This document shows, one piece after another, positions 3,101 to 49,789 of a DNA stretch of 64,000 bases. Both the position numbers and the translations under genes were made by a program. The notes beneath the pieces are model-generated. The model made no database searches. It saw only the letters and a program-made list of their open reading frames with translations, and was not told the origin of the DNA. The stretch is from contig NC_092674.1 of assembly GCF_964355755.1 (NCBI RefSeq), positions 25,296,001 through 25,360,000 on the forward strand, written 5' to 3'. This DNA comes from Antedon mediterranea. Taxonomy: Eukaryota; Animalia; Echinodermata. Positions within the stretch are counted from its first letter, which is position 1, and every line of letters begins with the position of its first letter.

Positions 3101-6100
3101 TAATCATAATAATACTTTCCACAACAAAATGAGAGAAACTTGTTGAAAAAAACGTTTGTCTGAATTAACAGCCAAGAGTGTTCATTCAGTTCATCATTAA
3201 GATTGATTTATGTATGTTTTACAAAGGTAGCTCTATCAGCTCTACTACAGCAGTACAGCTGACTTGTAGAGGCCCCCTTAAAAGCAGCAATACGAAAATA
3301 TACAAACAAATGATGTTGTGCAATTATTTTAGAAGAATAAAAGACACTTAGCTAGTGAAACAGTTTGTAGAGGAGAAACTATGAAATTATATTCAAACTA
3401 AATTGAGATCTAACCACAAATTTGACTCCTTTTTTTACATTTTTGGTAATATTCAAAATATGTTAGTGCTGGAGCTGGTAGGACGGGAACTGTGATCGCC
3501 ATTGCAGCCATGTTGGATATGTCAAAAGATCAAGGCAAAGTGGATGTGTTCAATTTTGTACGGAATATGAGGCAGAACCGTATTCAAATGGTTCAAACAG
3601 AGGTTAGTCAAATCAGTTATTTCATTTGATTATGTCTATAGATATTAAATTCGTAATTAAGTATACTTAATTACGAATTTAATGTGTAGTGCCATATGAC
3701 AAAATGTCCTACTGCATTTTGTTTATATTGATTGCTTAAGGTATTTTTGGTACTTTTTACCGCCTGCAATAAACTTTTTTCGTGAACAATCACTTAGTCT
3801 AGTAACATTTCGTCATTTGGCACACGAAAACACACAGATCCGCTTATGGCTTTATTAGTAAACAATTCAATTGCATTACTATTTTTAGGAACAATATAAG
3901 TTCATCTATGCCGTTATACTTGAAGAGTTGTTTTGTGGAGAGACTGTGATTCCTGTAAATGATTTACAAAACGAAATACAAAGACAGGCTCAACACACTC
4001 CATCGAGTTTTGATTATCAACTCAAAGTGAGCATCATGATTTTTTGTTGTTGAATATAATATATTGTATAACACAAATAAACTTAAATATAGAAGCACTT
4101 CCTCTTTAACTGTTAGTACAGTTTGCAAATGCTACCATAAATAATAATAATACAAAATAAATGATGGACAATTAATTTTGTGTTGAAAAATGTACCTGAA
4201 ACTCGTATACAACCGTTACACAATTACGTGTTACCAATTTAAAAAACAAACAACTATGGGAGATTATTATGATCTGATCTATTGTATTGTATTGTATTGT
4301 GTGAAACAATAAACTTGAATCCGCACTCTATCAACGAATTAGATGACAATTGACGGTCTACTTTTGTAACCCGTCACTACACTGTGTCTACTGGGAGCAA
4401 TCTTGTGCGATATCATGAATGGACATTTGCTGTGATTTTCTTCTAACCGAACACACTTAATTTGTATATTTTCAGACGTTGAACTGTCTGTTTCCCCTTC
4501 CCGTTGATGATCTTACTTCACACGCACGACAACCTGAGAACGTTTCCAAGAACAGATTCTATGACGTGGTTCCACGTAAGTAGTTTTTGTGGTTGACAAG
4601 AAAAAAAGTGTTAGTCGAGTTTTGCTGATAAAACAAAGCACTGATAAAACCTGATATTATTCAGAAGTTTGTATTCAGAAGTCATGTATTATTATCTCAT
4701 TAAACGTTATCATCAATTTCTACATCAACACGAGCTATACATCTTCTTCATCGTGACAGGATATTTTCAGAATGCATTTGCGAGTAGAGAACCTTCGTCA
4801 ACCGAGTTCTGATTGGTCAGTTTACCAATACTATTAATGTCGGTTACCAAACGGAAAGTTTAGAAATGTCATTTCTTTTCGGTTTTTTTTTGCAGTTAAT
4901 AGAGCTCGTCCATTGTTAATGTCACCATCCGACCGTGGCACTGATTATATCAATGCATCTTTCTGTAACGTAAGAAAACTATATTCTATTTTTAAGCGTA
5001 GAATTTTAATACCATAATAAGCTATTCATCGTATTATCCGCATTAGATCTTCCAAGAATGTTATTTAGTTTTCTAAGTTTTTATTGTCAGGTTCACAAGA
5101 AACCCAACGCGTACATTGTGACACAGGCTCCATTGGCTAAGCCAGCTAATACTGCTGAGGACTTTTGGCGTCTGGTGTTTGACTATAAATCTGAAGTCAT
5201 TGTGCAACTGAATGACAAAGACCAAACCTGTGCCGCCTACCTTCATAAGCAAATAAAGCAGCCAATAAAATTCGGGCAATTTACTGTTACTGTTGTATCA
5301 GTGGTTAAGAAAGAATTTATGATTGAAAGAAAAATATCACTAGAAAATGTAGGTTTTTGTTACTGATATATTGATATTGTTACTGGATTTCGATTTTATT
5401 TGTTACAATAACCACATATGAATTGTTGACGAATTATAATGATCTTCGTGGTACACGTTTTACGATTTATACAGATAATAATTATTTATATCAGAAAAAA
5501 CAAAATTCACAGTCATACTTACTTGTGTGTTTCTTCTTAGGATAACAACGTACGGGAAATTGTTCACTTCGAGTTTAGACAATGGCCAAATGGGAAGAAC
5601 GTTCCCGACGTTGATCCGTTTGTGAGGTTCATCACAAACATTGGAGAGGGAACTTTGTCTAAAAATAAACCAATCATCGTTCACTGCCTGTAAGTACACA
5701 TCGTATTATCTAATGCTGTTTTTATTTTGAGTTAGAAAAGGATAATGCAGAGTCCTATATTAAGACACCTTTGGAATCGTAACAACATGGGGTCCCCTTA
5801 ACAATACGGTATTTAGTCCCAATGAGTTGGTTGTAGTACGCTCCTCAGTCGCTTCGCGGAAAACTTTCCCCATAATAGGAATATCTCAAATACTGTAAAT
5901 GAGTAGGTTAATTATTCAAATGAAATGTATAGGCCTAAAGACATATAATAAATAATAACAAATTGGAGTTATTTCAAAATAGGAAAAACCCACGAACTGA
6001 AAAACGCATTCTGAAATTCAAAACTGTATTTCATTTCTAAAACCACGTTTTTGTTTTACTATAATTATTTCATTTTTATAAAAGGGATGGAGTTTGTAGA

Positions 6101-6640
6101 TCTGGATTGTTCTGTCTAATTCATTCAATGATCGAGAAAATGAGAGAAGACAAGGTGGTGGATGTATTCCAAGCACTTAAAACGTTTCGTTCAACGTGCC
6201 CTACAATGCTGAAAACCAAGGTACTGTATCGTATTTTGTTTATGCTATTTCTACACTTTATACTACAAAACAGAAAAAAAAATAGTCTTTAATTCACCAT
6301 TAATCACCATTGTTGTTAATATATTGAAAACTAAATCTTTTATTGTAAAATATCCTAATTATCTTTTGGTCATGTCTGGTTACAGACTTTGATGATAATT
6401 GGTCTACAAGAGTTTGAAAGAACTTGTCGTTGAAGTGAGCTGTTGCTTGTGTAGAGAGATAATGTCAAACGTTGAAAGCCATGACTTCTATTCTTCTTAT
6501 TTTCACCTTCATTATTGTGTTGCCAAAACTTTTTTTTACTTTTAATGATTCTTATTTTAATTGCATAGGTTCAGTACAATTTCTGTTATGATGCAGCCAA
6601 ATGCTATGTGCAGAATTACCAAGAATATGTCAATGTTTAA
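126..6640 (+). CDS. Receptor-type tyrosine phosphatase, tandem copy 1 (juxtamembrane, D1 and D2 exons; 5' part lies left of the window)
   Basis: Frame-consistent GT-AG exons: 126-373, 645-732, 929-1005, 1292-1328, 1424-1521, 2323-2445, 2928-3094, 3467-3602, 3889-4026, 4476-4575, 4896-4969, 5091-5348, 5541-5689, 6085-6220, 6569-6640 (TAA). D1 motifs KNRY, DYINAS, IACQGP, KCEQYWP, WPD, HCSAGAGRTG, QTEEQY. D2 motifs KNRF, DYINAS, WPN, HCLDGVCRSG. Confidence 0.93.
1762..2260. mobile_element. MITE with ~48-bp terminal inverted repeats in a PTP copy 1 intron
   Basis: Left end AGGTTTCGCAATCTTACGAATACGATAACGAAAACGGATACGTCA mirrors the right end at 2213-2260. It sits in a (TAT)n tract, so the duplication length is ambiguous. 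The paralogous intron (about 28111-28130) lacks it. Confidence 0.85.
2632..2790. mobile_element. Palindromic MITE, family AAGCTTGGTTCCCACTAG
   Basis: Ends CTAGTGGGAACCAAGCTT with internal inverted ACCAATGACAAG/CTTGTCATTGGT. Related copies at 45569-45749 and 53577-53713, degenerate copies at about 6716-6880, 32745-32900 and 50785-50940. Confidence 0.8.
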
Positions 6641-9263: not shown

Positions 9264-9419
9264 TAAGACGTCCAAACTTTATAACATGCCAAAATCAGGT
9301 ATAACCTTGTTTACTATACAAAGAAGTAATAACCAACAATGACTCCCTTTGCTTCTTTATTTGCTTTTCTTTTCTCTAGTTTGCTGTTGCAATAAACAGC
9401 TATTAGTATTATTGAATCA

Positions 9420-12236: not shown

Positions 12237-15200
12237 ATGTTGGCTAAATGTTTTCCAAACTGCATTCGCCTGTTTATAGGCCTAGCTTTCTCGTCATTGA
12301 CGTTTCAATCCGGGTCATCAGGTATGCTACATAGGGTTAGTTTTCTAGACCTAAAAACGTTTCCTCGTCGACCGTATCCTTTTCCTCTTATTTTGTTATT
12401 GTTCAGTCTTTTCACTTCTTATAACCGCTGTTTAAATTTCATTAAACTTGTTTTTCCCCTTTTAGATGTCTGTTTGAATGTGTTTTAAACATTATTTTTG
12501 GTTACTAAATTTTCCTATCTTTGTAATTGCAAAGAAACAGAGTTTCAATGTAGTGATCTAATTCACGTAAGCGATAGACTATATTTCACTGAATCGAGGG
12601 TGGTACTAGAAATAGGATAGAGGTACTGGAAAACAGCACAATAGCAGATACTGTATAAGTCGGTCATTTAGGCCTATAAACACGTACATACCAATTAAAA
12701 CACTACTTTCCTCTATGACTCACTGTGCAAACAATTAAGTGAAAATCTGTAACTTTTCGTACGCTGTGTGGTAAACATTGTGTTGGCGAGTAGACGTGCA
12801 GAACTTCCGCACACAAGCTCGCGTCTCACCCGTCATCACCAGTGTGTTCGCCACTCTGTGCGTCCTTGAGCAAGTACGTGTATAGGCCAACTTGTGAGTG
12901 GCGTACGAGCGAGAACAATATTTAAAGCGGGAGCTAATATAATATACGAAAATGTTTGCATAATCAGAATATTCGTTAGTTAGAAATATTCAAATATTCA
13001 AAGTAAAAAGTAACTTCACAGGACTACAAAGGTAATAATATCAAACTCGAGAAAATAGACCGTACCATCATTTACTCGCCGTTTTTACGAGATTAACCTA
13101 GTTGCAGTAAAGTGACTGAATGTAATAAAGTAACCATAACTTTTTTTTATAGATCCATTAGATATAACATGTTTTTCTGCCACACCACTGACGACATCTA
13201 ACACTAATAGTTGGTTTCGAGGATACGCACGTTACGGAGACATTCGAGAGTTATCCGTTTCAGTTTTAAACAAGAACATTGATGGGAAAGACAACGTGAC
13301 TTGGGATGATACTGGCCATTCAGTTGGGAATATAAAGCGTCAAGCGATAGATATGCCAGACGGTAAAGTATTTCACACAAATAGCAGAATTTTATACCGA
13401 GTAAGCGATGCTTTCAGGTATCTAGGTGTTGAAAGACTACAGCAGACTGAGAGAGTTGGTGTATTTTCATTTCAAGCAAAGAGAGACGAAGTAGTCGCAC
13501 ATTCAGCTATTGTATTGACATCCACTTCTGGTGAGTAATTCGGTAATGACTTTAAATATCTATAATAGAAGAGGGAAGTTTACGTTTGTTCATTAAACAA
13601 ATGTTTCCTTTTTTGCGTTGGTATTAGGCCTACAGTTGATATTTCAACAACACTTGAAACAGAAAAGAAAAAAATTACCAGTATAGGCCTACAAAATGAT
13701 ATTCTGAATCTTGAACGGTATTCAAGGAGTTTTTACAAATGTACAAACTTTCAACAATTAGTTGTCAATAGTCATGCAGATGATTAACAAAGAAAATAAG
13801 CTAGCATACATTACTGGTGATATGAACTTAGACATTAGCCAACACATGAGAGACAAAAACATCGAATCCCACCTTGACAATATCCAGTCCCAGTCCTTCA
13901 CTTTTCTTATTAATAAGCCCACAAGAATAACAGAAAACTCTGCTTCCATAATAGATAATATTCTCTACAATTCCCATCTAACAAATAACATAAACACTGG
14001 TATCATATATTCGGATATATCCGACCACCTTCCAATGTTCTGCATAAACACATCCGAAACTCACCATTATCATAACAACGTATACTGTTATAAACGCGAA
14101 AACAAACAGTATCAACATTGATCATTTTAAGCATGAACTTGCAAATCAACAATGGCAGGATGTCCTAGAATCAAATGACGCAAACAAAGCATATCAACAT
14201 TTTTCCACAACTCTGCAATCATTAGTTAATATATGCTTTCCAATAAAAAAGATAAAACTCAAAGCTAATAAACTTCAATCTCCTTGGATAACGGAATCAA
14301 TTGCTAAGTCAATTGTTACTAGAAACAAATTATATAGCAAATACAAACGTAGACCGACAAACATAAATAAATCTAAATATACAAACTATAGAAACGTACT
14401 TACCAATATTATTAGAAAACGAAAAAAGGAATACTATTTTAATAAATTTGAAAAAAATAAAAATAATATGAAGAAACGTGGAATGCCATTAATCAACTTT
14501 TAGGTAGGAAGAAAAAATCCAAACTGCCATCAAACCTAAAACATGTGACAGAGACATACACTAACCCAGAAACAAAATCCGATGCATTCAATTCTTACTT
14601 TATTAATATTGGGAAACAATTAGCTGACAAAATTAACCATGATAACAACCCTGCCATTGATCCAACGTCATATTTGACTGGTAACTACCTTAATTCTATG
14701 TATTTCAGACCCACAACAGAATACAAAATAATGACATACATTAATAAATTAGAAACAGATAAAACACCAGGTCACGATGATATCAGTGCTCACTATATCA
14801 AGTACAATTCCGTCTACCTTACAAAACCTATTTCACACTTAATAAACGTTTCACTCGCCACTGGCCGATTCCCTGATGAACTAAAATGTGCCAAAACTAT
14901 ACCTGTTTTTAAAAGTGGCGATAGGCAAAACCTTAATAATTATCGACCCATATCAATCTTACCATGTCTTTCTAAAATATATGAAAGAGTTGTCTACGAC
15001 CAAACCATTTCATACCTTAATAAATACAACATAATAAATCAATCTCAATATGGATTCCGACAAAAACATTCAACTGCACATGCTCTACTACACACACTAG
15101 AAAAAATAACATCAGCAATTGATAACAACTCATTCATTATAGGTGTTTTCCTAGATCTGTCGAAAGCTTTCGATACGATCGATCATAGAATTCTAATCAA

Positions 15201-18200
15201 TAAAATGGAATGCTATGGCATACGTGGTATTGTGTTAGACTGGTTCAGGAGTTACCTAAACCACAGAACTCAGTATGTTACTATTGAATCACACAAATCA
15301 ATAAAAAGAGAAGTAAAAGTTGGTGTTCCACAGGGATCTATAATTGGCCCATTGCTATTTTTGTTATTTATAAATGACATATTTTGTGTAAGCAAAGTTG
15401 TCGAACTTATCATATTCGCGGACGATACAAACATATTCCTCAAACATAATGACCCCATAGTTGCATGTAATATACTAAACTGCGAATTACAACGACTAAC
15501 CACTTGGTTTAGAGCTAACAAACTCTCAATTAATACAAATAAAACTAAATATATAATCTTTAGAGGGCGCCAGAATTTAACCGACTTCACAGACATGCAA
15601 CTATACGTAAATAACACCACACTCGAAGAGGTAACCCATATCAAATTCTTAGGAGTTACCTTAGACAAATTTTTGTCCTTCTGTACCCATATTGATGGCA
15701 TTGCAAACAAAGTTTCAAAGATAATAGGAATTCTGAATAAATTAAAGTATTTTTTACCATATATGACTCTATTGCAAATTTATAAATCTATAATCCTTCC
15801 CCATTTAACGTATGCAATAGTAGTATGGGGCTCCTTCGAACCAAGTAAATTAAACCGACTTCACATCCTCCAGAAAAAAGCACTACGAATTATATGCAAA
15901 GTCCACTATCAACATCCTTCCCAACCGCTATTTATACAAACCAACACATTAAATATATTTGATCTTTATGAAAAACATATGGCAATACTACTCTTCCAAT
16001 TTTATAATAAACAGCTCCCAATTACGTTTGACACTTACTTTCAAACAATTGAATCAACACATAATTATGATACCAGGAATAAAAAAAACTATACCACTGT
16101 ACTAAAGAGAACCAAAATAGGACAACAAAGTATATGCTATAGGGGTGCCAAGATATGGAATAGCCTTGAAAACTCAGTAAGAGAAATCAAGAGTATAGGA
16201 CTATTTAAAAAACAATTCATACTAATCTCCTCAAAAAATATTCTAATACCTAAAATCACATCGTATTAAGAACAAAAAATTTTTTATTATCGATTTCTTT
16301 TTTTCTTTTTTTTATGAATGATCTATTCTGGTCATATTTTTGAAATTGTTATTACATGTATAATAATATATATATATTTTTTTTTTATTCAACTGTCATT
16401 TATGATTATTGCTTATTGTCTCTATTGTTTACATATATATTTACTAATTGTTATTGTTTTTATTGTAATTTATTTATTTATTTAATTTTTCCAATTTTTA
16501 ATTCTTACATAGGACATCACATTTTAAAGCTTTGCTTATAGTGATGCCCGATTAAATCAATCAATATATAACTTTTGCTTAAAACCATGTTCAACTGTAG
16601 GCCGTTGCCAATATACAGTAATCTCTCTAAACAATGCTACTTTTAATACTTACAATATTATATGTTTTCATCTTTTCCATTGATTGTAAACCTCTAACTA
16701 AACTTTCCAGTATTTTATTATTCAACTTCTGTTTCCAATAATAGTCAATATAAACAATTAATTTTTATTTTTATCATTACTGTAACTAATCATTGTATAT
16801 ATTTTATAATTTATATTTATATTGGTCTTGTTTTTTTGTTTGTAAAAATCTACTGTAATATTATACCTTATTGTGGTTACCATTATAACAAATGTACGAT
16901 TGATTGAATAAAGTTCACATATAAAAAAAAAAATGTTACGGTGAATGTTTAGATAAGTTTATAACATTTAATATAGTGGCTAAAAATGAGTCTACATACA
17001 TCCCTTTTCCCACTTAAGTTATTTTTTTCATACAAATTACTATTGCTGCACGCATTTTCTCAGAGTGAGGGGGCTAAAGGGTAATAGGCGGTGTTGCTAG
17101 GGATAGTGGGGTATCAAAATGAATTGAAGCACCTCCGGGAAGGTTTTTATGTTGTGGAGTAAAACAAAAATTACCAGAATTGTACTGGGAATGTTATAAA
17201 CTACATTTAACAACCGTTGGGTTGTTTGGGTTTGGGTGGGTCGAACCAGAATTTGTATTAAGAATGTTTTATATTTTATTATATATTTTTTTAATAACCT
17301 GGTTGCTTGGTGTGTCGTAGGATAGGTGAGGGGTGCGTTGTGGATAGTTAGGCAACTATATAAAAAAAAATTGTTAAGTAACCCTGTTACATACAGGGTT
17401 TGCTAATACAGTCATTGTTACTACAGTATAAAGAACGATACCGTTAGTATTGGAGATGTCATATATCGATCCAAGTGAACGTGGTTGAGACATAACTACG
17501 GTAAGGAAATTTACATTTTATCCTTCCAGTATTGATACCAGTATGTATTTATTAATACTGCACAATTATATTACAGCCACTATTGTTATGGAGTACAGAA
17601 CGATAACCGTCGGTATTGGAGAATCTGTCACTATTAATCTTAGTGAAGGAAGTAATCTGGACGATTTACGTTGGAGATTTAATTATGGCGAAGAAATTGC
17701 CACTCTGGGGGGTAGTACGTCTACTGTGATTGATAACATACGGATGAAAGATGATGGCGTATATGAATGTTATACAGGAGATAGCCCAGATGGTAACCAT
17801 GGTATCATGAGACTTATTGTTAGAGGTAATTATAACCGTTTTCACAAAGTAATCATAATTTACGTACCTTCTTATCTTTCAATTATGTTAAAAGCATTCA
17901 TTATGATAAAACATACAGTAACTCCACATTCGTGTCAAACATTATAAAAAGAAAATCACATATAGACATTATGTGAAAGATCTTAATTGTAAAAGCAATG
18001 ATGTACCTATAAAGCACAATAGCAATATTTGAATTATTTATATTTGAACTAATTATATCACAATTTTTATTTCAATTTTATTTTTGTCATTTAGCTTGTC
18101 CGTTACCAAAATGGAATCCTCCAGATTGTGAAATGGATTGTCCCGTATGTTATAATGGAGGAATGTGTGACGATAATACGGGTGTCTGTATTTGCCCAGC

Positions 18201-21200
18201 AGGATTTAAAGGCACTGATTGTCTACAAAGTAATAACATATTTAATTATAAAATAAAATATAAGATAAATAATTATAAATAGCTTATTGTCGCTATTCTC
18301 TCAAAGCCTCATATCTCCACAAAACATAATTTTACTGGATTTTTTTTTGTTTGCTCTTGTAAATGTGTATGAATTAAAAAATCACAGATTCCAGTAAAAT
18401 GTAGAAAAATAATCAAAAGGTAAACACTATATAGTATTTAAGTTATTCTAAATTATTAAACATGATTTTGGTGACTTTTTCTAGGAATTTTGATGTACCA
18501 TATACCTTATAATTGTGAGCATCAACAAATATGTGTGTTCTAAAATATAATGGGTACTCGATTTTAGGAGAAAAATGAGATATCATCATAACATAATTTA
18601 TGTTTTAATGCATTTTAAGCGTGATTCGATTACGTCCAACAAATTCAATGTGTATTTACTCATTTTCCGTTAGGCGGATTATAGTTCCTCTATGCCCGTA
18701 AATTTATGAAAATAGATTTCTTTGTGGATATGTATTTCTGTTGTTTCCTTTTTTAAATGTGTCTTTAGATCAAACCATGACTTCAAAGTCTTTTAACAGG
18801 TTGTGGTCATAATCGGTGGGGTCGTGAATGCACCAGTTCATGTAGTAGAAGTGGATATTGCGATGAATTTCTATTCTGTCCACCGGATCCATTTGGATGT
18901 GCATGCAGCAATGGTTTTGGAGGAAACGATTGTAAAACAGGTTTGTTGTCAAAAAGCCACCTAATCAGTTTTTACTTTAGGTTGGGGTTATCTTACCTTT
19001 ATCTGATTCCTTTCAATTCTCGGACATTTTGACAATCGTTATAACATTTCAGCTTTAATGTGCTAGAGCAAGTTTCTTTGCTCTATTAATTATATTTTTT
19101 ACCTTACTGCTTGTGCATTTTACTTTGTGAAGTTAAAATAACTTGAATTGAATTCTTGTTTAGGCATGCTTGAAAATATGAAAAAAAAAGTATATCTGAT
19201 ATATGGTATTTGGAAATTACAAAAATAGACCTAATTTTTATTGATATTATAATTATTGATTAGTGAAAACTGACGTATTCCGTAAATCAACAGATGTAAC
19301 TTCTCCCTAGCAGTTGTCATCCCTGAAACTGTACTGAACGTCAAGCATTACGTATCTGACGTATCTGTTCTTCAGATTTAGATTTTTAGAATCGTACAGA
19401 AGAACTAACCGGACATCTCCGGAAAAGAAATTACAAGAAGGAATACAGCGAAGCAACTACCGGTATAAAGAAAAGATATTCCTCGCTGTACAAACCACGT
19501 CAGTCAAATTCGACAATCACCTTAGGTTGCCTCCATTACGGCTATTATTGAGAAACATATGCCCATTCTACAGTCCACAAAACGTCTCAGGACTCAGTTC
19601 CCCACCTTCGTGATATATTAGTAAGATCTAAATTGACTCTCACGAAAGCCCGAATTTGGGCTGTCAATTTTGCGGCAAATACTGAAAAATTTAAGAGTAA
19701 CCAAACTGGCGACCGCAGACAATACATTTTGTCTAAAAAAAACGTCATTTATCTTAATTAATGTAAAATTTGTGGAAAACAGTACGTCAGAGAAACCAAA
19801 AACACTCCATATGAGAATAACACAACACAAATCATCTATCAAAACATTAAAGATTGATCAACCTGTAGCCGAATGTTTTAATTCAGCTGGTTACTCGATT
19901 GCAAATTTCAATAGAGACTACGATGTCAAATGGAGACAAAAATAAAACCACTGAGAATTACTACTTAAAACCAAAACCCCTATTTGGACATTTGAACATA
20001 CTCCCAGATCGGTAAAATTATTCCATTGACTATTCCTAGAATTTAAGTTTCAATATTAACCACTATTTGAGTTGTTTTTTAGTTCCATTCTTAAATTCAA
20101 TTCAATTCAAAAGACATTATATTTACGTCCAAAAGACAATTTCTGTTAATTTTTCTGGCTGTTTTACTTTATAGTTTTGCCTTAGCCTTTTGCTTATTTT
20201 ATTTTCTATCTACATTGATATCCAGCCACTGATACCCACAGCATTGTCAATTTTTTTCAGTAATTTGTCTTTGTATTTATAATATCCTTATTAGTGTTAT
20301 AGACTACACAGTAGTTTAGGTATAATATTTCATTATGAGAATAAAATCAATTTTCAGTGTCTTCATAAAATCAAAAAGTGTCTTGAACCTATTATGTTTT
20401 TAAGCATGTGAAGATTTATACTACGGAGCAGATTGTCGGCAAAAATGTAACTGTGCTAATGAAAACTGTAAGCAACTCGATACAAGCGATCCCACTAAAG
20501 ACATAGGATGTAGTGCCGGGTCACAATGTTCACCTGGTTACACTGGAGACAAATGTCTAGGTACGGTAATTATTAATATATTATTATATTTTCCATAAAA
20601 CCTATAACATTTCGATTTGACTGAAATTAAAAGTTCCCATCCATGACTCTGTAATCTAGTGGGCGTGGTGCTATCACTGTTGGACCGAATTGGTAAAAAG
20701 CCAGGCTATTGTATGTAGCTTAGGCCTGGCCTATATCCTTAACTTTCTGAATAAAAGGCTTTCCAGCAATAAGACCCACGCAATAACCTCAGCATTAAAT
20801 CCTTTATTTAAAATTACCACTGAAAATTGATAATTAACAATCATTTTATGATAATTAATGTATAATTATTTAGTAAACTAGATGGTACGCTCGCTTCGCT
20901 CGCGTACCATCTAGGTCGTGCCCACAGATGGTTCTCGAATACACAGTAATTTCAGCGTAACAAAACTGCTTTTTTTTAATGTACGTACTGCAGGATGATA
21001 ATAGTTATTATTGTTTACAGAAACGAATAAATAGACACGATGATTTATGTATTAAACTGAAATTAGCACACTGGGAATTACTTCCGAAAGAGAAACTTGT
21101 CACAAAATGAGTCCAAATTTGTTATTTGGACTCATTTAAACAAACCCAATTTGTGTTTTGTGTGTAACATTAGGGTTGAGGGATGGGGAAGAGGATATGG

Positions 21201-24200
21201 GTACAAAGAAGAACAATGTTTTAATATTCTTTATCTACTCAGTAACAAAATATGTTTTTCATGTTTGATAGGCCTATACCACTTGATACAGTAACACATT
21301 TGCGATTTAATACTTTGTTAAAACTGTTCACTGTTATAGTCCATTGAAATAGCATGTACATGTAACGATACACGTACCACTACAACGTTTATATTCTTTG
21401 TAATTATTAATTAATACAAACGTTGAGAAGCAACTGTCAGTACTACAGTTTATTTGTATATTGTACGTTCTATATAACAGTAGGGCCTACACTCACAGTA
21501 ATACGTTTATTTGTACATGATTGTGTTATAACAGTCTAACAGTACCCACACTCACAGTAAATTCAATGGCGACCACAAATGTTAATACGTATTTACAGTA
21601 ATGTCTAAGTATTGCAATACTATATATATATATATATAGGTTTTAGGTTAATTCCCCAAGGGCCAATAAATTTACCTACAGCTGGTGGTACTTGTGTTAA
21701 AGCAAAGAGTTATTATTGGAATGTTCCATTCATCGGAAATCAATACATTTGTATAAATGTATATTAAATGTAACAAAATAGTATGTTTTTAAAAAAATAG
21801 GTTTGTCTTCAACATTATGATGCTGTACTCGAGCTGTTCAACTGGTTTTCATCCATTAAAAACAATTATCGTAGGAGGAGATAGGAAAATGCGAAGCATC
21901 CTCGTATTATTGTATGCGGGTATTTTTCAAGATAGACATGCATTGGACAGTGTATACCACGATCGGAAAACACCCCTATTTGGGGCAAATCGTTGAACCT
22001 AAATTTCGTCAATAACTAATTATCGAACTCCATTTAATTAGTAAACAGGGTTACATCAGGTGGTTAAAATCAGTATCGAAAGTACGAACCAACTTTATAT
22101 ACCATCGAGTAAACATTCTGAAGTAAGGCGCGATTTACCGAATTTTGCCCTTACGTAAATTTATATATAGAAGATACAAGTAAGATGCCATTAGTACACC
22201 CCCCCCCCCCACCCCCAGAAAATCATCGCGAGATTATTCTCTGCCATGATTTTGGTCAACTTTTTCATTGTTATGACTTTATAGCCTACGTCCACTCGTT
22301 CTCAGTCAGAGAGCAAACGGAAAAATTCCACACATGAACAAGTTCTCAATCAAATGTGACATATCACAATGACGTCATAGGGTATCAATAGAAATATTGG
22401 ATGTACAAATCTAATGATGATGGAAGTATTCACTTTATTGTTTTTAAACATATGATATATGTGATAGTATGATACTTCGGATATAAAATATGAATGTAGG
22501 CCCCTATTGACCACTGTTAGTATAAAAATAAAATTACTATCTTTCAGGGGAGAAACATAATTATCTCTAATATATTTCATTGCTGACATGTTAATATGAA
22601 AAAATAAGCCCTCTAAGCTTGGTAATTTGCAAAATATTTCATTTTACACTGATTTAACTTTTACTTTACACAATAATTTAATTTACTTTTGATTGGTGAC
22701 GTATTATATTACTGTGTCTGTGTACAGAGCCTGTGTCATGTCCTTCTGGATTCTTTGGTGTGTTGTGTACCTTTCCATGTCACTGCAAAGACACTGACGA
22801 TTGTAATCGAGATGGAAGTTGTCCTAATGGATGTCACGAGGCTTGGGCTGGAACAAACTGCAGCATAGGTAATGAGACACATATAGGATTCGTTATAAAG
22901 TATCTCTATGATATGATGAATGTAAGCCTGAATGAAAATTGGAGCGAAAAAAAGTGTGTTATTATTAATGTTATGAGGCTACTAGGACGATAACGATTGA
23001 CGATAAATACAGTACAGTTTTTCTACAGCAAAGAAAAGTTTTCATTTCAAAACCATAGGTAGTAACCATATTTAATAATAAAAATAATATTTACGTTTAT
23101 AAGTAAAATAAAGTAATATACGATAGCAGAGAATTGACCACATCTATTTGTTAAAATATGCCTGGTGCTTTTCTTTTCTTTAATCATTAGCATTACCGTA
23201 CCGCTCTGAACCGCCAACTGTTGTAAACCAGACAACAACTACTCTAACGTTTGACGTCACTTGGATTCTTGGTGAAGACTATGGAACAGGCACAATTACA
23301 AAACGGAAGCTTTTGTATAAATTATCGCAAATGGATTCATTTACATTAATAACCGAAGAACCAGATAATAATTTAATAATTATCGATAATCTCATTCCAA
23401 ATACAGAATATCAATTCTATTCTCAATTTTCGAGGATGGTTGATGGTATTGAGGTTGATGGACCAGCAAGTGCCATTGGATCAACAAAAACCATATGTAC
23501 AAGTAAGTTATTCTACAAGAATTGTTAAAATCATTTAAGTAAACTACACATACTGACGCGGATCACAAGAACAATTAGAAATTTCAGGAAAATATTATTT
23601 ATTTAATAAAGTAAAAATTATAAATTGGCATATGAATTCCACCGATTCTTTTGGTACAACGTCACACATTCTACCACATTTTACACCAGTGCCATGGGAA
23701 CAATGTCAAAAGTGAGACGGTACTCTAATGTTTAACGAAGATTATTTTTACCCATCAAGATTGTTGGCCAATTGATTGATACTGGACTATTTAAAATAAT
23801 ACTCAATTTGTCTAAATAAGAGAGAAAATCCGAAATTGTATAAGAACAATACAGAACCCTAAAGCATATTTCCTGGATTGCTTCGTAAATTTGTTGTCCT
23901 AATATTGTTTCCTTTTTTCTCAGTATTATTCAAGTTTTATTATTTATATTTTATCTTATATAGAGCCATTGGATGATCCTGAGATTGAATTGAAAACCAT
24001 TGATGACAATCAGGCCACATTGAGTTTAAAGGTATTTCAAAATATCTAGATTTATTCTATATTGCAATAAACTGGGAGAGTCGTTTCTATGTTTTATAGA
24101 AATGTTTTGTTATAGCGGTTTAAATGCATTATTTTAAATCAATACAATGGCCCTTTGCCCGTTCTACCTTAAATATTATATTTTGTTATATATTATTCTT

Positions 24201-27200
24201 AGTCGGTTTCTGGTTATGATCGAATCCAATGTAACTCTATTATTCAATATCAAGTGCGATATTTGGACATAGATGGAAATATACATGGTATAATCAACAC
24301 AACAAGTTCTCAATTAGAAGTTGAACTATCAGGATTATCAAGTTGTACTGCTTATGTTGCCAACGCTCGAGTTGTTAATAATCTTGAGATAGCTGGTGAT
24401 TGGGGACCGGACACAACGATACAAACAGCACCGTCAGGTACCGTAACTAAAATAACACAATTGTATTTATTTATTTATTTAACAACATACAGGATTACAC
24501 AATCAGGTAAAAGAACACCAGATTTGCATTGTGAAACGTAAATGCAAAATAAATCAAGGGAAATGTTTAGTTTTGTGGTAAAAAGATGAGATTGATAATA
24601 TCTAGCTTTGAATGAAGAAGAATTGTTAGGTAATATTTAATTTAAGTTGGTATGTTATTCCACATTTTACCGCCTCCAACTTTGAATGACGAGTTCATTT
24701 TATTAGTATTATTCATATAATCCAAAAGAAAACTTAAACTAAATTAACCCTACAACCTGTACACAAACATTTTATCACTATAGAAAATAGAAATACTCTA
24801 TGAAAAGCTTATGCATATAAAATACTTCCATCCATAATCAATTTTAGAGTCAGAATGCACAACGTAGATTGGCATTTTGAAACAAGAAGTATGAATAGGC
24901 CTATTATAGTGTACACTCATTAAAAAGTTTGAAATATAAAAATATTTTATTATGGTGTAAAAATGTATAAAAGTTAAATTAAATGTTAAAAGATAAAGTA
25001 AACTTATATAAGAAACATTAATTGTGATTTTCTACCTATTGTAGAGCCATCGATAGAAAGTAATCCATTCAAAAATGGAACACATTTACAGATGAAATGG
25101 GAAGATTCTACGTGTGACAACCAAGATTATCAGGTGACCTACCATTATAAACTGTCAGATGACGAAGTATTTCAGCAAGGAATAACAACAGAAACTGAAG
25201 TTGTTTTTCACGAAGGAATCGAGTCATGTAAAGAATATATATTCACAGTATTGGCGTCATATTTGAATGTTACTGGGACACCTGACGCAATGCAAATTAT
25301 GGTTGAATCCGGTTGTGACAACCCTGGCAACTCGGACCAGAAGGAGGGAGAAGGTTTCCAAAATACTACAATTTTTCTTTTTTTTTTTCATTTGGTATCT
25401 ACAGTGTATAAGTTCTTAAAAGAAAACTAGATATCTTATCTCAATGTAGATAACATAGTGTGATTGCTTAAAGAAAAGCTTGGTGTTTCTATATTCTACT
25501 ATTAACAAAAACAAACAAATGTTGAGGTAAAAATGTAAAACAATTAATTTTAGGCCCAAATCATTCATAGATATTAGCAAAACTCGTGCGGTGGTCAGTA
25601 CATTCCTGCAATATAATACATTGCTGCATAGTCTATGTCTATATTTCCCTGATCTAGCTGTCATGTCGACAAACTTTCAGATTATATTTTATTTGGTTAT
25701 ACCCCTATATTTAAAAAATTACTATTACTATCATGGATATAGGCCGGAATAAGTTGTTTAATAAAAGTATCCGCATTACTTCTATTATTATTATCATTAT
25801 TATATAATAATAAATGGAATCTGTATCTGTAATTTCAGAATCTGGATCACCAATAGATGTGATAATTGGCTGCCTGGTTCCTGCATTGTTGGTACTCGTT
25901 CTTGTGCTGATATTAATTAAACGGTATATATATATAATGTTATTATAATTGGCATTATGTTGTTATTAATATCTAATAATATACCTTTGTTCCAATTATT
26001 TTAATTGTATTAGCCTTTTTCTTACGACCTCAAAATCAGTCACAACAATTAGCATCTCTTTCAATTTTTTGTAACATTTAGACGTAGAAGCTATAAAGGT
26101 AAGCCTATTGGTTTATCAAGCCATGCCGTGTCCATCGGTGGTGTATCTCGTAAAACAAAACAAGAGCAAGATATTGGAGGTAAGTTACTGATTGTGGGAA
26201 GGGAGATATGAGTGAAGTAGGATTAACGAGTAGTACAGTAATCGTGTGTAGGTCAAAGATGATTTTGCGATATGAGTGATCTACAGTAGTGACTACTCTT
26301 TCTTTATAGAGAACTTACTTTTAAAATGTTATATTTATACATATGATTTTATTTACTCATAATATGATCTCCTTTACGTATAAAGACAGTGCTTATGATG
26401 AAGTAAGGGGTGCCTATGATAACGTGAGGGGTGCCAGAAACTCTTCAAAGAAACCAGTACACATTGAAGCTGATGCCGAACATGAAAATGATTATCAACC
26501 TGAAATTGACCAGGAACCCGTCTATGGCAACACACAATTGGAAAATCAAGAATACAAACCAATCGAGTTATCCAAACTGCATGACTATGTGATGAAGCGT
26601 CAAATAAGTATTGAAAGTGGCTTTGAGAAAGAGTTTGAGGTGCGTTAAAATGCATTTTATTGGTATTTACACTCTACAATAATTAATATTAATAATGTCC
26701 AGTTTAAAACAAAATGCTTTTCAAACTGCTTCAATAATTACATTGACACAGGTATAATATATTGTTAGTGCCTGTATTAAATCCAGGATTCTGATTTTCA
26801 AACTACGTAACAACAAATAAAGCGAATGCTTTCCCATTTCTTTTCTTCTCATCATGCGTCGCACATTCAAGCCTTTTATCGCTCTCCGATAAACCATTAC
26901 TTTAACCATGAACACTTACCCCGTCGCGGTTTAATCAAACTTATTTCTATTTATACATCTAAAGGATCTTGGCAACAAGCCCTTATTCCCCAGCACAGTC
27001 GCAAAGTCATCAATAAATAGGAAGAAAAATCGATATGCGAACGTAATTCCATGTAAGTTAAAAATGTAATAATTTTTCTGTATCATAATTCATAGTCATG
27101 TCTTTCTAAAAAGTGTAATTTATTATACTTTTTGCTAGCTAAAAAAAGTAAAATGAAGCAATATGTACATTTATCAGCTGAACGTTAATTGCCTAATTAA

Positions 27201-30200
27201 CTTTATTTTATTTTTATTTAGATGACAACACCCGTGTGGTTCTTGACAAGATTGAAAATGTTCCAGGATCCGATTACATTAATGCTTCATATCTAGATGT
27301 AAGTTTAAAAATTAAAATGACTAAACAAATTTGTTAAAGTCATATTTTTCATACATTTATGATCAAATTGTCAAATTATTGTTTTTAGTAAAAAAAATGT
27401 TTAAATGCTGTCCTGGGAAGAGTATGGTTGAAAGACTCTCTGTAGGGTATTCGGTACTTATTTATACAACCACATAATTAACAACAATTTATAATTATTG
27501 TAGTTATAAAATCATAATACTATATTGTTTAGCATCGTTCGTGTAATTGTTTTAAAAATGTTAAGTTGTACTTTTTCAGGGATATACAATACCACATGAG
27601 TTTATCGCATGCCAAGGTAAGCTTTAATACATATATTACAAATGTATTAGCCTATTCCTTCTTAGTAGAATTTTCCTTGGTGTTTGTATTGTTTAACTTA
27701 TTTTTTTTAATTTCCAGGACCAAATGTGGCTTCAGTCAACGATATGTGGCGAATGGTCTGGAAAGAGAAGTGTCGAGTGATTGTCGTAGTTACGAATCTT
27801 GTTGAAGGAAACCGAGTAAGGCCTATAATTTTCTAGTATGTTTGACAGTGCGAAGGTGTCAGTGATACAAATTATGAAATATGCATAGGTATTAATGATA
27901 CTGACACTGAATAAAGTCTAAATAAATCGTTTATTTTACGCAACTCCGACCGCCGGTAGGATTATTCCAACAAACAAACAAATTAAGTGTGTTACTGAAT
28001 ATTATAACACAATCCAGATTTTAAAAACACTCAATGTGTGTCTTAACATTTTAACTCAATGTGTTTGTTTGTGTAAGTTCCGGCAATAATTATATGTGGT
28101 TAGCTAATCACACTTATTATTATAATACGGAACAGGTTCGGTTGTATTCGTTTATGTCTTGGCATATTTTATTTTTCAGAAAAAATGCGAACAATACTGG
28201 CCTGACTTAAACAATATGGAGAAATATGGAGAAATATCTGTAGCAAATACTCGTGAAACTAACTACGGTCATTATGTGACCCGGATTTTTCAACTTCAAA
28301 GGGTAAAATACGATTTTATTAAGTTACATTCAGTTAATTGTGTTAAGAAATAAATATGCTAGAATATGATTATGTTAAGAAATAAATATGCTAGAATATG
28401 AATTGTGTTAAGAAATGTATGCTAAAATGATTATGTTAAGAAATGAATATGTTTGGTAAAATGAATACGCCAGGAATAAATATAATAATAATAAAACGTA
28501 CAACGTAATAATAAAAAAGTACTTTCAGCTTAAACTTTATAATATGAAAGCAATTTAAATGTAATTAAATTTTAACAAACAGTTTATAGAATCAGTTCTC
28601 TTAATTTAGAAGTTATTTATAGCTTATTATTTGAGTGAGAGCATTTTGTTTTAATCTCACAGGATGAAGATGACGAGCCTATCTATAATGTATTCCAGTA
28701 TCATTTCACCGAATGGCCTGACAAGAGTGTTTCCAACGCCGTTCCGCAGCTAATCGACTTTATCCAAACGTTTAGAAAAACTCAGCAGAAGTTTTCTAGC
28801 AACAGTGGACCAGTTATTGTACATTGCAGGTAATATGATCATAATGATACTTTCCACAATATACTGAGAGAAACTTGTTGAAAACGTTTGTCTTAATTAA
28901 CAGCCAAGAGTGTTCATTCAGATTTATTTATTTACTAAACTTTGTTTTACAATGGTATGCTGTACTTCAGCAGTAAAGCTGACTGGAAGAACAATAAACA
29001 TATACAGGCAATTGATGTTATGCAATTATTTTAGAAGAACATCAGACACTTAGCTAGTAGAACAGTTTGTAGAGAAGAAACTATGAAATTATATTCAATC
29101 TAAATTAAGATCTAACCACAAATTTGAATCCTTTTTTTACATTTTTTGTTATTATTCAAATATGTTAGTGCTGGAGCTGGAAGGACAGGAACTGTGATCG
29201 CCATTGCAGCCATGTTGGATATGTCGAAAGATCAAGGCAAAGTGGATGTGTTCAATTTTGTACGGAATATGAGACAGAACCGTATTCAAATGGTTCAAAC
29301 AGAGGTAAGACAAATCAGTTATTTCATGTTATCTACTTTATTACGAATTTAATGTGTGGTGCCACATGACAACTACTGTACTAACAAGAACATTTCCTAC
29401 TGAATTTTTTAAAACGACATTTTTTAACAATCCAATATTTAGTCTAGTAACATTTCGCAATTTGTCATTTGGCACACGAAAACACACAGATCCGCTTATG
29501 GCTTTATTAGTAAACAATTCAATTGCATTGCTATTTTTAGGAACAATATAAGTTCATCTATGCCGTTATACTTGAAGAGTTGTTTTGTGGAGAGACTGTG
29601 ATTCCTGTAAATGATTTACAAAATGAAATACAAAGACAGGCTCAACACACTCCATCGAGTTTTGATTATCAACTCAAAGTGAGCATTATGATTTTTTGTT
29701 GTTGAATATAATATATTGTATAACACAAATAAACTTAAATACAGAAGCACTTCCTCTTTAACTGTTAGTACAGTTTGCAAAAGCTACCATAAATAATATT
29801 TATTAAACAATACACAAAAATGATGGACAATTAATTTTGTGTTGAAAAATGTACCTGAAACTCGTATACAACTGTTACACAATTACGTGTTACCAATTTA
29901 AAAAACAAACAACTATGGGAGATTATTATGATCTGGTCCGCACTCTATCAACGAATTAGATGACAATTGACTGTCTACTTTTTGTAACCCGTCACTACGC
30001 TGTGTCTACTGGGAGCAATCTTGTGCGATATCATGAATGGACATTTGCTGTGCTTTTCTTCTAACCAAACACACTTAATTTGTATATTTTTAGACTTTGA
30101 ATTGTCTATTTCCCCTTCCCGTTGATGATCTTACTTCACACGCACGACAACCTGAGAACGTTTCCAAGAACAGATTCCATGACGTGGTTCCACGTAAGTA

Positions 30201-32669
30201 ATGTGAGGTTATAAAGGAAAAACAGATATGCTGATAAAACAACGCTCTATAAATTATTATTCAGAAGTTTGTTTTCAGAAGTCATGTATTATTATCTCAT
30301 AAAACGTTATCATCTCATAAAACGTTATCATCAATTTCTGCATATGTATACAACACGAACTACATCTTATTTTCAGAATAATATTTGAGAGTAGAGAACC
30401 TTCGTTCTGATTGGTCAGTTTCACAATGCTATTGATGCAGGTTATCTGACGGCAAGTTTAAAAATGTCATTTCTTTTCTTTTTTGTTTGTCTTGCAGTTA
30501 ATAGAGCTCGTCCATTGTTAATGTCACCATCCGACCGTGGCACTGATTATATCAATGCATCCTTCTGTAACGTAAGAAAACTATATTCTATTTTTAAGCG
30601 TAGAATTTTAATACCATAATAAGCTATTTATCGTATTATCCGCATTAGATCTTCCAAGAATGTTATTTAGTTTTCTAAGTTTTAATTGTCAGGTTCACAA
30701 GAAACGCAACGCGTACATTGTGACACAGGCTCCATTGGCTAAGCCAGCTAATACTGCTGAGGACTTTTGGCGTCTGGTGTTTGACTATAAATCTGACGTC
30801 ATTGTGCAACTGAATGACATAGACCAAACCTGTGCCGCCTACCTTCATAAGCAAATAAAGCAGCCAATAAAATTCGGGCAATTTACTGTTACTGTTGTAT
30901 CAGTGGTTAAGAAAGAATTTATGATTGAAAGAAAAATATCACTACAAAAGGTAGGTTTTTGTTACTGATATATTGATATTGTTACTGGATGTCGACTTTA
31001 TTGTTACAGTAACCACTTGTGAATTGTTGACGAATTATAAATGATCTTCGGGGTTAAAGACATAAAAACAGAGGTGCACAGTACACTTTTTATGATTTAT
31101 ACAGATATTAATTATTTATATCAAAAAACAAAATTAACAGTCATAATTACTTGAGTGTTTCTTCTTAGGATAACAATGTACGGGAAATTGTTCACTTCGA
31201 GTTTAGACAATGGCCAAATGGGAAGAACGTTCCCGAAGTTGATCCGTTTGTGAGGTTCATCACAAACATTGGGGAGGGAACTTTGTCTAAAAATAAACCA
31301 ATCATCGTTCACTGCCTGTAAGTACACATCGTATTATCTACTGCTGTTTTATTTTGAGTTAGAAAGGATATATATTAAGACACCTTCGGAACCGTAACAA
31401 CATTAACAATACGGTATTTAGTCCCAATGGGTTGGTTGTAGTGTGCTCATCAATCGCTTCACGGAAAACTGTCCCCATAATAGGGGTATCTCAAATACTG
31501 TAAATGGGTAGGTTAATTAGCTAAATGAAATTTATAGACCTACAGACATATAATAAATAATACCAAATTGGAGTTACACCAAAATAGGATAACCACACGA
31601 ACTGAAAAAGTACGCACTTTTAAATGTTAATTGAATTTCAAAACTGTATTTCATTTCTAAAACCACGTTTTGTTTTACTATAATTATTTCTTTTTTATAA
31701 AAGGGATGGAGTTTGCAGATCTGGATTGTTCTGTCTAATTCATTCAATGATCGAGAAAATGAGAGAAGACAAGGTGGTGGATGTATTCCAAGCACTTAAA
31801 ACGTTTCGTTCAACGTGCCCTACAATGCTGAAAACCAAGGTACTAGGCCTATATCCTATTTTGTTTGAGATATTTCTACATTTTATACTACAAAATAGAA
31901 GAAAAAGTCCTTAAATCACCATGTATAAAATAAACAAGTCAAAAAATACTTTTTACCACTATATGCTGACTAACAGCTTTGTTTATGGGAAATGACTGAT
32001 TTATCTAAGTTCTATTTACTTATATTTTCTTATGTAAAAGGGTCCTACAAAAAACGAAGCTACAGCTTTTTTATGCAGAATCCTTGTTATCAGTTGTATT
32101 GCAATTATGATTTAATTGATGACTAAATAAATGTGGAATAATAATAATAATAATTAATCACCATTGTGGTTAATTTATTGAAAAATAAACCTTTGATTGT
32201 AAAATATCTTAATCTTCTTCTTCTTGTGATCATGTCTGGTTCTCGGGACCGTTCTATGGTTACCACCAGTAGGCTTTCTTCATCAAGGCTTCTATGAATG
32301 GATGACGAGTCAGAGCAGTAGTAGTAGACCATACCCAGTACCGTTTTGATTATGATCAATCGGGAAATTACCTTACGACATACTTTGAAGATAATTGTTC
32401 TACCAGAGTTCCCTATTTATGCAGTTTGAAAGAACTGGTCGTTAAAGTGAACTGTTCTTGATTGTGGCAAGATATGTCAACAATTTAAAACCATGACTTC
32501 TTCTTTCCACGTTTACGCAGTGTTAGCAGTATTCCCTTCATAATTGTGTTACCAAGACCTTTTGTAACTTTTAATGATTCTTTTTTTAATTGCATAGGTT
32601 CAGTACAATTTCTGTTATGACGCAGCCAAATGCTATGTGCAGAATTACCAAGAATATGTCAATGTTTAA
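12237..32669 (+). CDS. Receptor-type tyrosine phosphatase with Tie-like ectodomain (SP-Ig-Ig-EGFx4-FN3x3-TM-PTP D1-PTP D2), tandem copy 2, apparently complete
   Basis: Exons: 12237-12321 (signal peptide MLAKCFPNCIRLFIGLAFSSLTFQSGSS), 13153-13530 (Ig1), 17577-17825 (Ig2, DDGVYEC...RLIVR), 18095-18229, 18800-18940, 20405-20560, 22728-22868 (EGF-like), 23191-23502, 23964-24031, 24203-24437, 25045-25353 (FN3), 25839-25923 (TM VIIGCLVPALLVLVLVLILI), 26082-26179, 26386-26639, 26965-27052, 27222-27298, 27580-27616, 27718-27815, 28180-28302, 28663-28829, 29169-29304, 29541-29678, 30094-30193, 30498-30571, 30693-30950, 31169-31317, 31704-31839, 32598-32669 (TAA). All splice phases join without stops. 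The first exon is the least certain. Confidence 0.88.
13762..16933 (+). mobile_element. 5'-truncated LINE (CR1/L2 group, Crack/L2-like) with frameshifted ORF2 (AP endonuclease C-terminus plus reverse transcriptase), in PTP intron 2
   Basis: EN motifs ITGDMNLD, PTRIT..SASIIDNI and SDISDHLP (13762-14121). Frameshifts near 14100 and 14475. RT ORF 14545-16269 has NYRPISILP, QYGFR, FLDLSKAFDT, GVPQGSIIGPLLF and FADDT. AT-rich 3' UTR, AATAAA at about 16907 and an A-tail ending at 16933. Confidence 0.93.
17060..17406 (+). mobile_element. Fragment of Helitron family B (3' end)
   Basis: GGGGTATCAAAATG and AATTGTACTGGGAATGTTATAAACTAC are reverse complements of repeats at about 10500-10710. Ends in the hairpin AACCCTGT-TACAT-ACAGGGTT followed by CTAA. 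Confidence 0.5.
19270..20000 (+). mobile_element. Degenerate Penelope-like retroelement fragment (RT thumb plus GIY-YIG endonuclease)
   Basis: Across frameshifts it reads QALRI.RICS, then NVIYL..CKICGKQYV(R)ETKN..HMRITQHKSSIK...DQPVAECFNS, the PLE GIY-YIG pattern. Confidence 0.75.
20878..22174 (-). mobile_element. Helitron family A, complete non-autonomous copy in a PTP intron
   Basis: Minus-strand 5' TCTTCTATATATAAATTTACG and 3' CTAG, inserted between A and T. Perfect 13-bp arms CTAGATGGTACGC/GCGTACCATCTAG at 20878-20914. Confidence 0.8.
28335..28455. repeat. Short tandem repeat, ~31-33-bp units (TGTTAAGAAATAAATATGCTAGAATATGA)
   Basis: Three to four consecutive, progressively degenerate units in an intron. 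Confidence 0.75.
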
Positions 32670-49652: not shown

Positions 49653-49789
49653 ATTTCACGTCTGTTATTGCTAACTACACCTTATATATCTTCTAAGTTC
49701 AGAAATATGAACGTTCTTGTCACCAAAACAACCTACGTTCAGCACGCGACTAACACCTTTCACAAAATAATGGCGAAATCTGTATGTAC

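Follow-up and report, generated by a model that had tools for sequence, protein, structure and literature searches.

A Tie-type ectodomain joined to tandem tyrosine phosphatase domains in a probable receptor of the crinoid Antedon mediterranea

The vertebrate kinases Tie2/TEK and Tie1 and the sea-urchin kinases SpTie1/2 carry a head of two Ig and three EGF domains (Ig1-Ig2-EGF1-3), three FN3 domains and one transmembrane (TM) segment, while receptor protein tyrosine phosphatases (RPTPs) usually combine an active protein tyrosine phosphatase (PTP) domain, D1, with a regulatory second one, D2. In a window of 64,000 nucleotides from Antedon mediterranea (contig NC_092674.1, positions 25,296,001 to 25,360,000 of the forward strand) we find a gene whose predicted product shares with the Tie kinases the head, the three FN3 domains, including a motif in the first of them, and the single TM segment, but differs from them in having a fourth EGF in place of Ig3, an Ig1 without cysteines, a tandem PTP instead of a kinase, and many variable paralogs.

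Gene structure and the Tie-type head

When rebuilt from the sequence, the gene comprises 28 exons running from an ATG at 12237 to a TAA at 32669 (4257 nucleotides, 1418 residues, no internal stops), with GT-AG borders at all 27 introns. The encoded protein starts with a signal peptide and continues with Ig1, Ig2, four EGFs, three FN3s, TM, juxtamembrane region, D1, D2 and a C-terminal YVNV. The in-frame exon chain proposed in the initial annotation is confirmed in the sequence. Pfam searches with single exons recovered Ig, EGF, FN3 (weakly) and Y_phosphatase, and over the Ig1 exon there is 100% identity with RefSeq XP_071950905.1, a protein of the same crinoid. Exons 2-8 and exon 11 have phase-1 borders at both ends and are therefore suited to module shuffling.

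The head of this ectodomain is specific to the Tie type. The EGF1 exon, compared alone with the PDB, retrieves Tie2 first (E-value 4.3e-9; next family WIF1, 7.9e-7), and so does the EGF2 exon (5.1e-6; next 7.1). The exon 4 and exon 5 modules correspond to EGF1 and then EGF2 of Tie2 with their order kept, and the Tie-specific motifs that had been quoted for both are indeed present. Taken singly, the Ig exons are less telling: Ig1 matches none of the Pfam families and retrieves nothing meaningful from the PDB, and Ig2 gives generic Ig matches only, with contactin first. With a family profile both align to Ig1/Ig2 of Tie2. A profile of 8 close relatives matches Tie2 over Ig2-EGF3 at 4e-47 (next protein 4e-10), also covering FN3-1, and reaches 3e-5 against Tie2 FN3 structures. 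A second profile, built from 12 heads of wider diversity, matches Tie2 residues 3-277, Ig1 included, at 1e-57, the next protein being contactin at 7e-15. With the latter profile SCARF1 scores 8e-6, or 29 bits as against 199 bits for Tie2, and a generic MEGF/SREC origin of the EGFs is rejected on this result. The match to Tie2 breaks off after EGF3 and is taken up again only at FN3-1, while the exon between them, exon 7, is EGF-like; thus Ig3 is not present in this gene, and a fourth EGF stands in its place as originally suggested.

Comparisons of predicted structure rank Tie2 first as well. The AlphaFold model of the head is of modest quality (mean predicted local distance difference test score, pLDDT, 57, with a poor Ig1 below 50). 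With this model the top three Foldseek matches are all Tie2 (E-value 1.8e-14 vs 3e-6 for the next; template-modelling score 0.58), and a wide structure search (VIA) again places Tie2 first (Z 13.5, root-mean-square deviation 4.9, 253 aligned residues; next Z 9.3). The Atlas's own model reaches a template-modelling score of 0.76 to a Tie-1 cluster.

Whether the head and the phosphatase domains belong to one gene is a question that arises at intron 8. RefSeq XP_071950905.1 equals the rebuilt protein over residues 1-532 (exons 1-8), then runs past the exon 8 donor into the intron and stops at 540 residues, with neither TM nor PTP; reading through the donor (23503-23525) indeed meets a stop after 8 codons. 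Taken at face value this would give two genes, one for a secreted Tie-like ectodomain of 540 residues that stops within intron 8 and another, downstream, for the PTP, and several paralog models similarly end after EGF2, EGF3 or early FN3-2. However, intron 8 is 461 nucleotides long and has a GTAAGT donor and an AG acceptor in phase, no second signal peptide is seen downstream, and two close relatives are full-length. One of these, Anneissia japonica XP_033097302.1 (1493 residues), is collinear across all 28 exons, with 784 of 1378 aligned residues identical (57%) and one extra FN3; the other, the Antedon paralog XP_071950701.1 (1410 residues), has an identical module order.

Transcript-like data point the same way. 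A same-species run of contigs (X5) was taken as RNA because it has zero depth in five intron-only bins; runs X1 and X2, with sequence over introns, look like DNA. Contigs of X5 span splice joints at eight of the nine introns between exons 7 and 16. Joints 8-9, 9-10, 10-11, 11-12 and 13-14 have more than 31 letters on the short side (66 at 8-9), and joints 7-8, 14-15 and 15-16 have 28; at three joints the intervening letters are partly undetermined. Since only 2 of the 153 X5 contigs are at least 99% alike to this copy, and the listed pieces differ from it at many letters, the joints appear to derive mostly from paralogs and constitute evidence at the level of the family rather than of this copy. 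This, the early end of the RefSeq model and the absence of the TM-to-juxtamembrane joint 12-13 from the X5 joints listed (one run, contigs only) weigh against a single gene, and among the contigs shown none assignable to this very copy crosses the 8-9 junction. The full-length relatives and the 8-9 splice in paralog contigs nonetheless lead us to regard it as very probable that ectodomain and tandem PTP belong to one gene, and two genes as most improbable. The case that the initial annotation had named as fatal to its reading, ectodomain and PTP exons in separate genes, is thus countered by relatives and spliced paralogs, and retains the RefSeq model in its favor. The read-through form may be genuine, a soluble decoy isoform made as an additional product of one gene rather than a sign of two; several paralog models likewise end early.

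In the intracellular part D1 retains all its catalytic motifs, KNRY, WPD, HCSAGAGRTG and QTEEQY. D2 is degenerate (KNRF, WPN, HCLDGVCRSG), an arrangement common in RPTPs, where D1 is active and D2 regulatory. Against the tandem copy upstream, the ratio of nonsynonymous to synonymous substitution is 0.28 for D1 and 0.21 for D2, indicating purifying selection on both. The juxtamembrane YGNT is kept in 5 of the 12 other family members listed.

Family members across animals and their intracellular domains

Word-based protein searches returned 44 cluster representatives, all of them predicted gene models. They did not return vertebrate Tie1/2, which the head profile matches at 1e-57, and absences from this set (a crinoid kinase, further protostomes, a mollusc, a hemichordate) thus carry no evidential weight. 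A PTP P-loop is found in nine of the 44: four from Antedon and one each from Anneissia, Acanthaster, Asterias, Amphiura and the tick Amblyomma. Four more have PTP fragments, two are kinases (Patiria, Amphiura), one is a seven-TM adhesion G-protein-coupled receptor (Holothuria) and the remaining 28 lack a catalytic domain in their models. The Amblyomma protein, with seven RefSeq isoforms, combines LCCL, Tie head, FN3 array, PTPRU-type stalk, TM, D1 and D2, and its head has Tie2 as the sole PDB match (E-value 7e-43). The starfish members share with it the PTPRU-type membrane-proximal FN3 and carry galactose-binding-type domains in addition. These observations make it likely that Tie-head PTPs form a receptor family that is old and has been overlooked, acts to dampen tyrosine signalling and was multiplied in crinoids, probably for recognition. 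A one-off exon shuffle of a Tie head onto a PTP, as initially envisaged, does not fit a family present in three echinoderm classes and a tick; the direction of transfer is not established and may be the reverse.

Several individual members have unusual builds. P0024 of Acanthaster planci (XP_022095017.1) joins the Tie head to a single PTP lacking KNRY and WPD (WLG) and is likely a pseudophosphatase. P0034 of Holothuria leucospilota (KAJ8040036.1) has the head on an adhesion receptor with GPS and seven TM segments, either a third kind of output or a fused gene model. P0043 of Branchiostoma lanceolatum, named NOTCH2, combines the head with Notch-like EGF repeats and a reverse transcriptase and is probably a chimeric model. 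The crinoid proteins P0032, P0029 and P0006 are Tie-head TM proteins with tyrosine-rich tails and no enzyme (P0032 has YGNV twice and YENV), and are possibly adaptor-only receptors or truncated models. P0030, P0028, P0029 and P0032 form a second crinoid clade (100/100) that has an Ig1 with cysteines, a build nearer to vertebrate Tie and, by eye, an Ig3-like segment; P0030 ends in a tandem PTP. In P0013-P0016, P0018, P0011, P0019, P0021 and P0033, likewise from crinoids, the head is doubled or accompanied by SRCR, C-type lectin, HYR or F5/8 type C, which are recognition-type modules.

The kinases with this head allow a direct comparison of the two enzyme types. Among single kinase domains, Tie2 is nearest to the Patiria kinase domain (281 bits vs 243 for Ret), a two-domain EGFR construct summing to a higher score. 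From the galactose-binding domains (38%) through head (58%) and FN3s (42%) to the stalk (48%), the ectodomain of the Patiria kinase aligns in unbroken order with that of the Asterias tandem PTP. In a tree of 21 heads the Patiria kinase head joins the Asterias and Acanthaster PTP heads (100/98). Placing the two kinase heads in one clade is rejected (approximately unbiased test, p 0.001) in this tree, which held 21 of 47 heads, the kinase group having been named after a quick tree of all 47 was seen. Thus, unless a false fusion produced the Patiria model, these gene models suggest at least one exchange of ectodomains between kinases and PTPs inside the echinoderms. The PTPRU-type stalk of the Patiria kinase is a hint that the kinase took over an RPTP ectodomain. 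Deep in the head trees branches have weak support and long ones come together, and hence these trees give no direction of transfer; the PTP tree contains family members only, with no outside references. Tentatively, and with this possibility standing clearly below even chances, the Tie head could predate the Tie kinase: it would have been an RPTP ectodomain in the last common ancestor of tick and echinoderms that was later captured by a kinase, vertebrates having kept the kinase only and echinoderms still swapping kinase, phosphatase and non-catalytic tails as a paired activating/inhibitory recognition system.

These comparisons bear on the function first suggested for the gene, in which the receptor would bind an angiopoietin-like (fibrinogen-domain) ligand in common with a Tie kinase, or pair with that kinase, and give the opposite signal. 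The starfish pair, with its collinear build and grouped heads, counts in favor of such a model, and Ig2, the ligand-binding domain in Tie2, is the conserved Ig among the paralogs. However, none of the 33 crinoid relatives (19 Antedon, 14 Anneissia) has a kinase, in searches that also missed vertebrate Tie1/2, and the starfish kinase and PTP compared come from different species and from unverified gene models. Furthermore, the segment of Tie2 Ig2 that forms the angiopoietin contact site shows no conservation here in the 12-head profile alignment. According to one account, Tie1, of the same build, does not bind angiopoietins, and vertebrates employ the unrelated R3 phosphatase VE-PTP against Tie2 (PMC13162719). 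We therefore consider a common ligand or partner unlikely, and angiopoietin-like ligand binding by the crinoid head is unsupported. What stands of the paired kinase/phosphatase system is that both versions of one ectodomain exist in echinoderms; its kinase half was not encountered among the crinoid proteins in this incomplete search.

The D1 domains point toward a different comparison. Among single-D1 structures, D1 of a crinoid relative scores best against PTPRK (291 bits), PTPRT (275) and PTPRM (262), with alpha at 252, and the tick D1 against PTPRK (282), PTPRT (282) and PTPRM (277), a ranking by bit score and not a tree. R2B phosphatases such as kappa, mu and T act in homophilic adhesion, and like heads might similarly bind each other across cells, the variable Ig1 then serving as a paralog-specific self code; the PTPRU-type stalk of the starfish and tick members would agree with such a role. 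The Antedon gene itself, however, is without that stalk, and it has no MAM domain, a requirement of R2B adhesion. Given also the nature of the ranking, homophilic adhesion seems to us rather unlikely.

Variation among copies, possible roles and surroundings of the gene

Antedon contributes 19 and Anneissia 14 of the 44 relatives. Nine of the 19 Antedon proteins lie on a contig equal in size to that of this gene, and the 3' half of one paralog sits 5.6 kb upstream of the gene (Table 1), so placed that its ectodomain would fall before the start of the window. Introns and 3' flanks of the two tandem copies also align, at 78-85% DNA identity, and hence the duplication is recent. Compared across nine close paralogs from Antedon, mean identity amounts to 60% in Ig1 (28 pairs), 79% in Ig2 (36 pairs), 85% in EGF1, 68% in EGF2, 61% in EGF3, 80% in EGF4 and 65-70% in the FN3s; the sole paralog pair with tails has 90% in D1 and 85% in D2. 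Ig1 is thus, together with EGF3, the most variable head domain, and its differences are bunched in a few segments, some with indels that alter loop length. This variation agrees with varied ligands and likewise with relaxed constraint.

From these results we lean, by a little, toward reading the 28 exons as a receptor that spans the membrane once, carries a Tie2-type head outside and a tandem PTP inside, and is one of an expanded crinoid family of what are likely variable recognition receptors that damp tyrosine signalling. Besides the early end of the RefSeq model, the mostly paralogous X5 joints and the poor Ig1 of the AlphaFold model, the following counts against this view: EGF3 (61%), FN3-2 (65%) and TM (45%) are about as variable as Ig1 or more so, which relaxed constraint could explain; the WPD loop of D1 reads WPDKSVS, off the consensus WPDxGxP; and most relatives (28 of 44) lack an enzyme in their models. 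In such a receptor Ig1, Ig2 and the EGFs would fold as a compact Tie head on an FN3 stalk, and different paralogs would engage different ligands outside the cell by means of their variable Ig1 loops. Ligand binding would change clustering and thereby expose or occlude D1, which would dephosphorylate targets of tyrosine kinases, with D2 in a regulatory role. YxN motifs bind Grb2-type SH2 domains, and the YxN sites of the juxtamembrane region and C-terminus, once phosphorylated, would recruit adaptors of this type. An effect of ligand binding on clustering and D1 access has been proposed for RPTPs generally (PMC12297450), and phosphorylation of C-terminal YxN in RPTPs has been discussed (PMC5336234). 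By analogy, the most likely setting would be immune or concerned with self/non-self discrimination: a snail parasite-resistance locus contains clustered EGF-rich RPTPs (PMC12297450), a sea-urchin Tie kinase is elevated in coelomocytes and axial organ (PMC12113024), and starfish coelomocyte proteomes include a Tie-2-like kinase, with an F-like phosphatase also named (PMC13409769).

Apart from the receptor and its tandem copy, the window holds mobile elements and a few neighbouring genes (Table 1). The LINE-type element (long interspersed nuclear element) in intron 2 is not part of the receptor. Fragments in intron 5 (19338-19942) have no Pfam match; by eye we take them to resemble a Penelope/GIY-YIG retroelement. 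A high-copy repeat of about 1.2 kb occurs three times (7779-9264, 10848-12002 and 20877-22171), of which one copy precedes exon 1 and another falls within intron 6. The minus-strand open reading frame at the far end of the table resembles 'short-chain collagen C4-like' proteins.

Table 1. Features of the 64,000-nucleotide window, with positions counted from its first letter
Feature	Position	Strand	Evidence
Tandem paralog, 3' half: 15 exons, juxtamembrane-D1-D2, open frame	126..6640	+	597/632 aligned residues identical
Exon 1: start codon and predicted signal peptide, residues 1-28	12237..12321	+	RefSeq P0001 start the same; paralog leaders similar
Exon 2: Tie-type Ig1 without canonical Ig cysteine pair; hypervariable among paralogs	13153..13530	+	profile alignment to Tie2 Ig1
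LINE-type endonuclease/reverse transcriptase in intron 2, three frames, 600-codon open reverse transcriptase frame	13762..16266	+	RVT_1 E-value 3e-36; Exo_endo_phos_2 weak
Exon 3: Tie-type Ig2, RLIVR at end	17577..17825	+	Pfam, profile alignment to Tie2
Exon 4: EGF1	18095..18229	+	best PDB match Tie2 EGF1, E-value 4.3e-9
Exon 5: EGF2, CPPDPFGC motif	18800..18940	+	best PDB match Tie2 EGF2, E-value 5.1e-6
Exon 6: EGF3	20405..20560	+	Pfam, profile vs Tie2
Exon 7: fourth EGF-like module where Tie has Ig3	22728..22868	+	cysteine-rich, profile break vs Tie2
Exon 8: FN3-1, motif common to Tie2 FN3-1	23191..23502	+	Pfam, profile; 8-9 splice in paralog RNA contigs
Exons 9 (23964-24031) and 10 (24203-24437): FN3-2	23964..24437	+	Pfam; paralog RNA contigs
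Exon 11: FN3-3	25045..25311	+	Pfam weak; relatives; paralog RNA contigs
Exon 12: single TM helix, residues 731-749	25839..25923	+	hydropathy peak 3.35, sole peak >2
Exons 13 (26082-26179) and 14 (26386-26639): juxtamembrane region, 7 tyrosines including SAYDEV, YDNV, YGNT	26082..26639	+	
Exons 15-22: PTP D1; KNRY, WPD, HCSAGAGRTG, Q-loop intact	26965..29678	+	
Exons 23-28: PTP D2 (WPN, HCLDGVCRSG; likely regulatory), C-terminal YVNV, stop 32669	30094..32669	+	
Sdh5/SDHAF2 neighbour gene	37410		Pfam
Rhodanese neighbour gene	42301-43030		Pfam
PACRG neighbour gene, few introns	48536-49655	minus	Pfam
C2HC zinc finger neighbour gene	51777-52970		Pfam
Open reading frame without Pfam match	56854-57342	minus	

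Comparison with known receptors

Odd RPTP ectodomains in invertebrates are already known in kind, and Byrum 2006, on sea-urchin phosphatases, reportedly names several orphan RPTP types. No description of a Tie-head phosphatase was found in the full-text literature, where subscription papers and supplements, which may list this architecture, are thinly covered; on balance, the Tie homology of these receptor phosphatases is somewhat more probably undescribed than described. The architecture lies beyond the vertebrate R1-R8 subtypes, and current annotation hides it under names such as 'T-like', 'U-like', 'Tie-1-like' and 'uncharacterized'; an invertebrate annotation as 'Tie-like' that is based on the ectodomain thus does not imply a kinase. 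The tick phosphatase with a Tie head reopens the origin of the ectodomain of the Tie/angiopoietin receptors. The family as a whole offers a natural case of one ectodomain attached to enzymes of opposite sign, and its large variable crinoid branch is a candidate immune or self-recognition system.

Among vertebrate RPTPs, the R2B subtype (PTPRK, PTPRM, PTPRT, PTPRU) resembles the crinoid gene in its tandem D1-D2 and in giving the best D1 scores among single-D1 structures, and RefSeq names relatives 'T-like' or 'U-like'. The crinoid gene differs in having no MAM match, its N-terminus being taken by the Tie head, and in its EGFs and its tandem expansion. The best whole-protein PDB scores are to R2A (LAR, sigma, delta) and R4 (alpha, epsilon), which, with R1/R5, are the only subtypes with D1+D2 structures among the listed matches. 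R2A shares an Ig and FN3 ectodomain and R4 alpha a C-terminal YxN, but neither subtype has an EGF or a Tie head. The MEGF/galactose-binding RPTP cluster SudRes1 of Biomphalaria is similar in its tandem PTP, EGF repeats, clustered paralogs and variable ectodomains, whereas no Ig or Tie head is described in that report and the EGFs of the crinoid gene are Tie-specific and only four in number (PMC12297450). A domain scan of this Antedon gene found no galactose-binding domain. VE-PTP (PTPRB), finally, differs in being of R3 type, with an FN3-only ectodomain, one PTP domain and no head in common with Tie, and resembles the crinoid receptor as a receptor phosphatase, one that opposes Tie signalling (PMC13162719).

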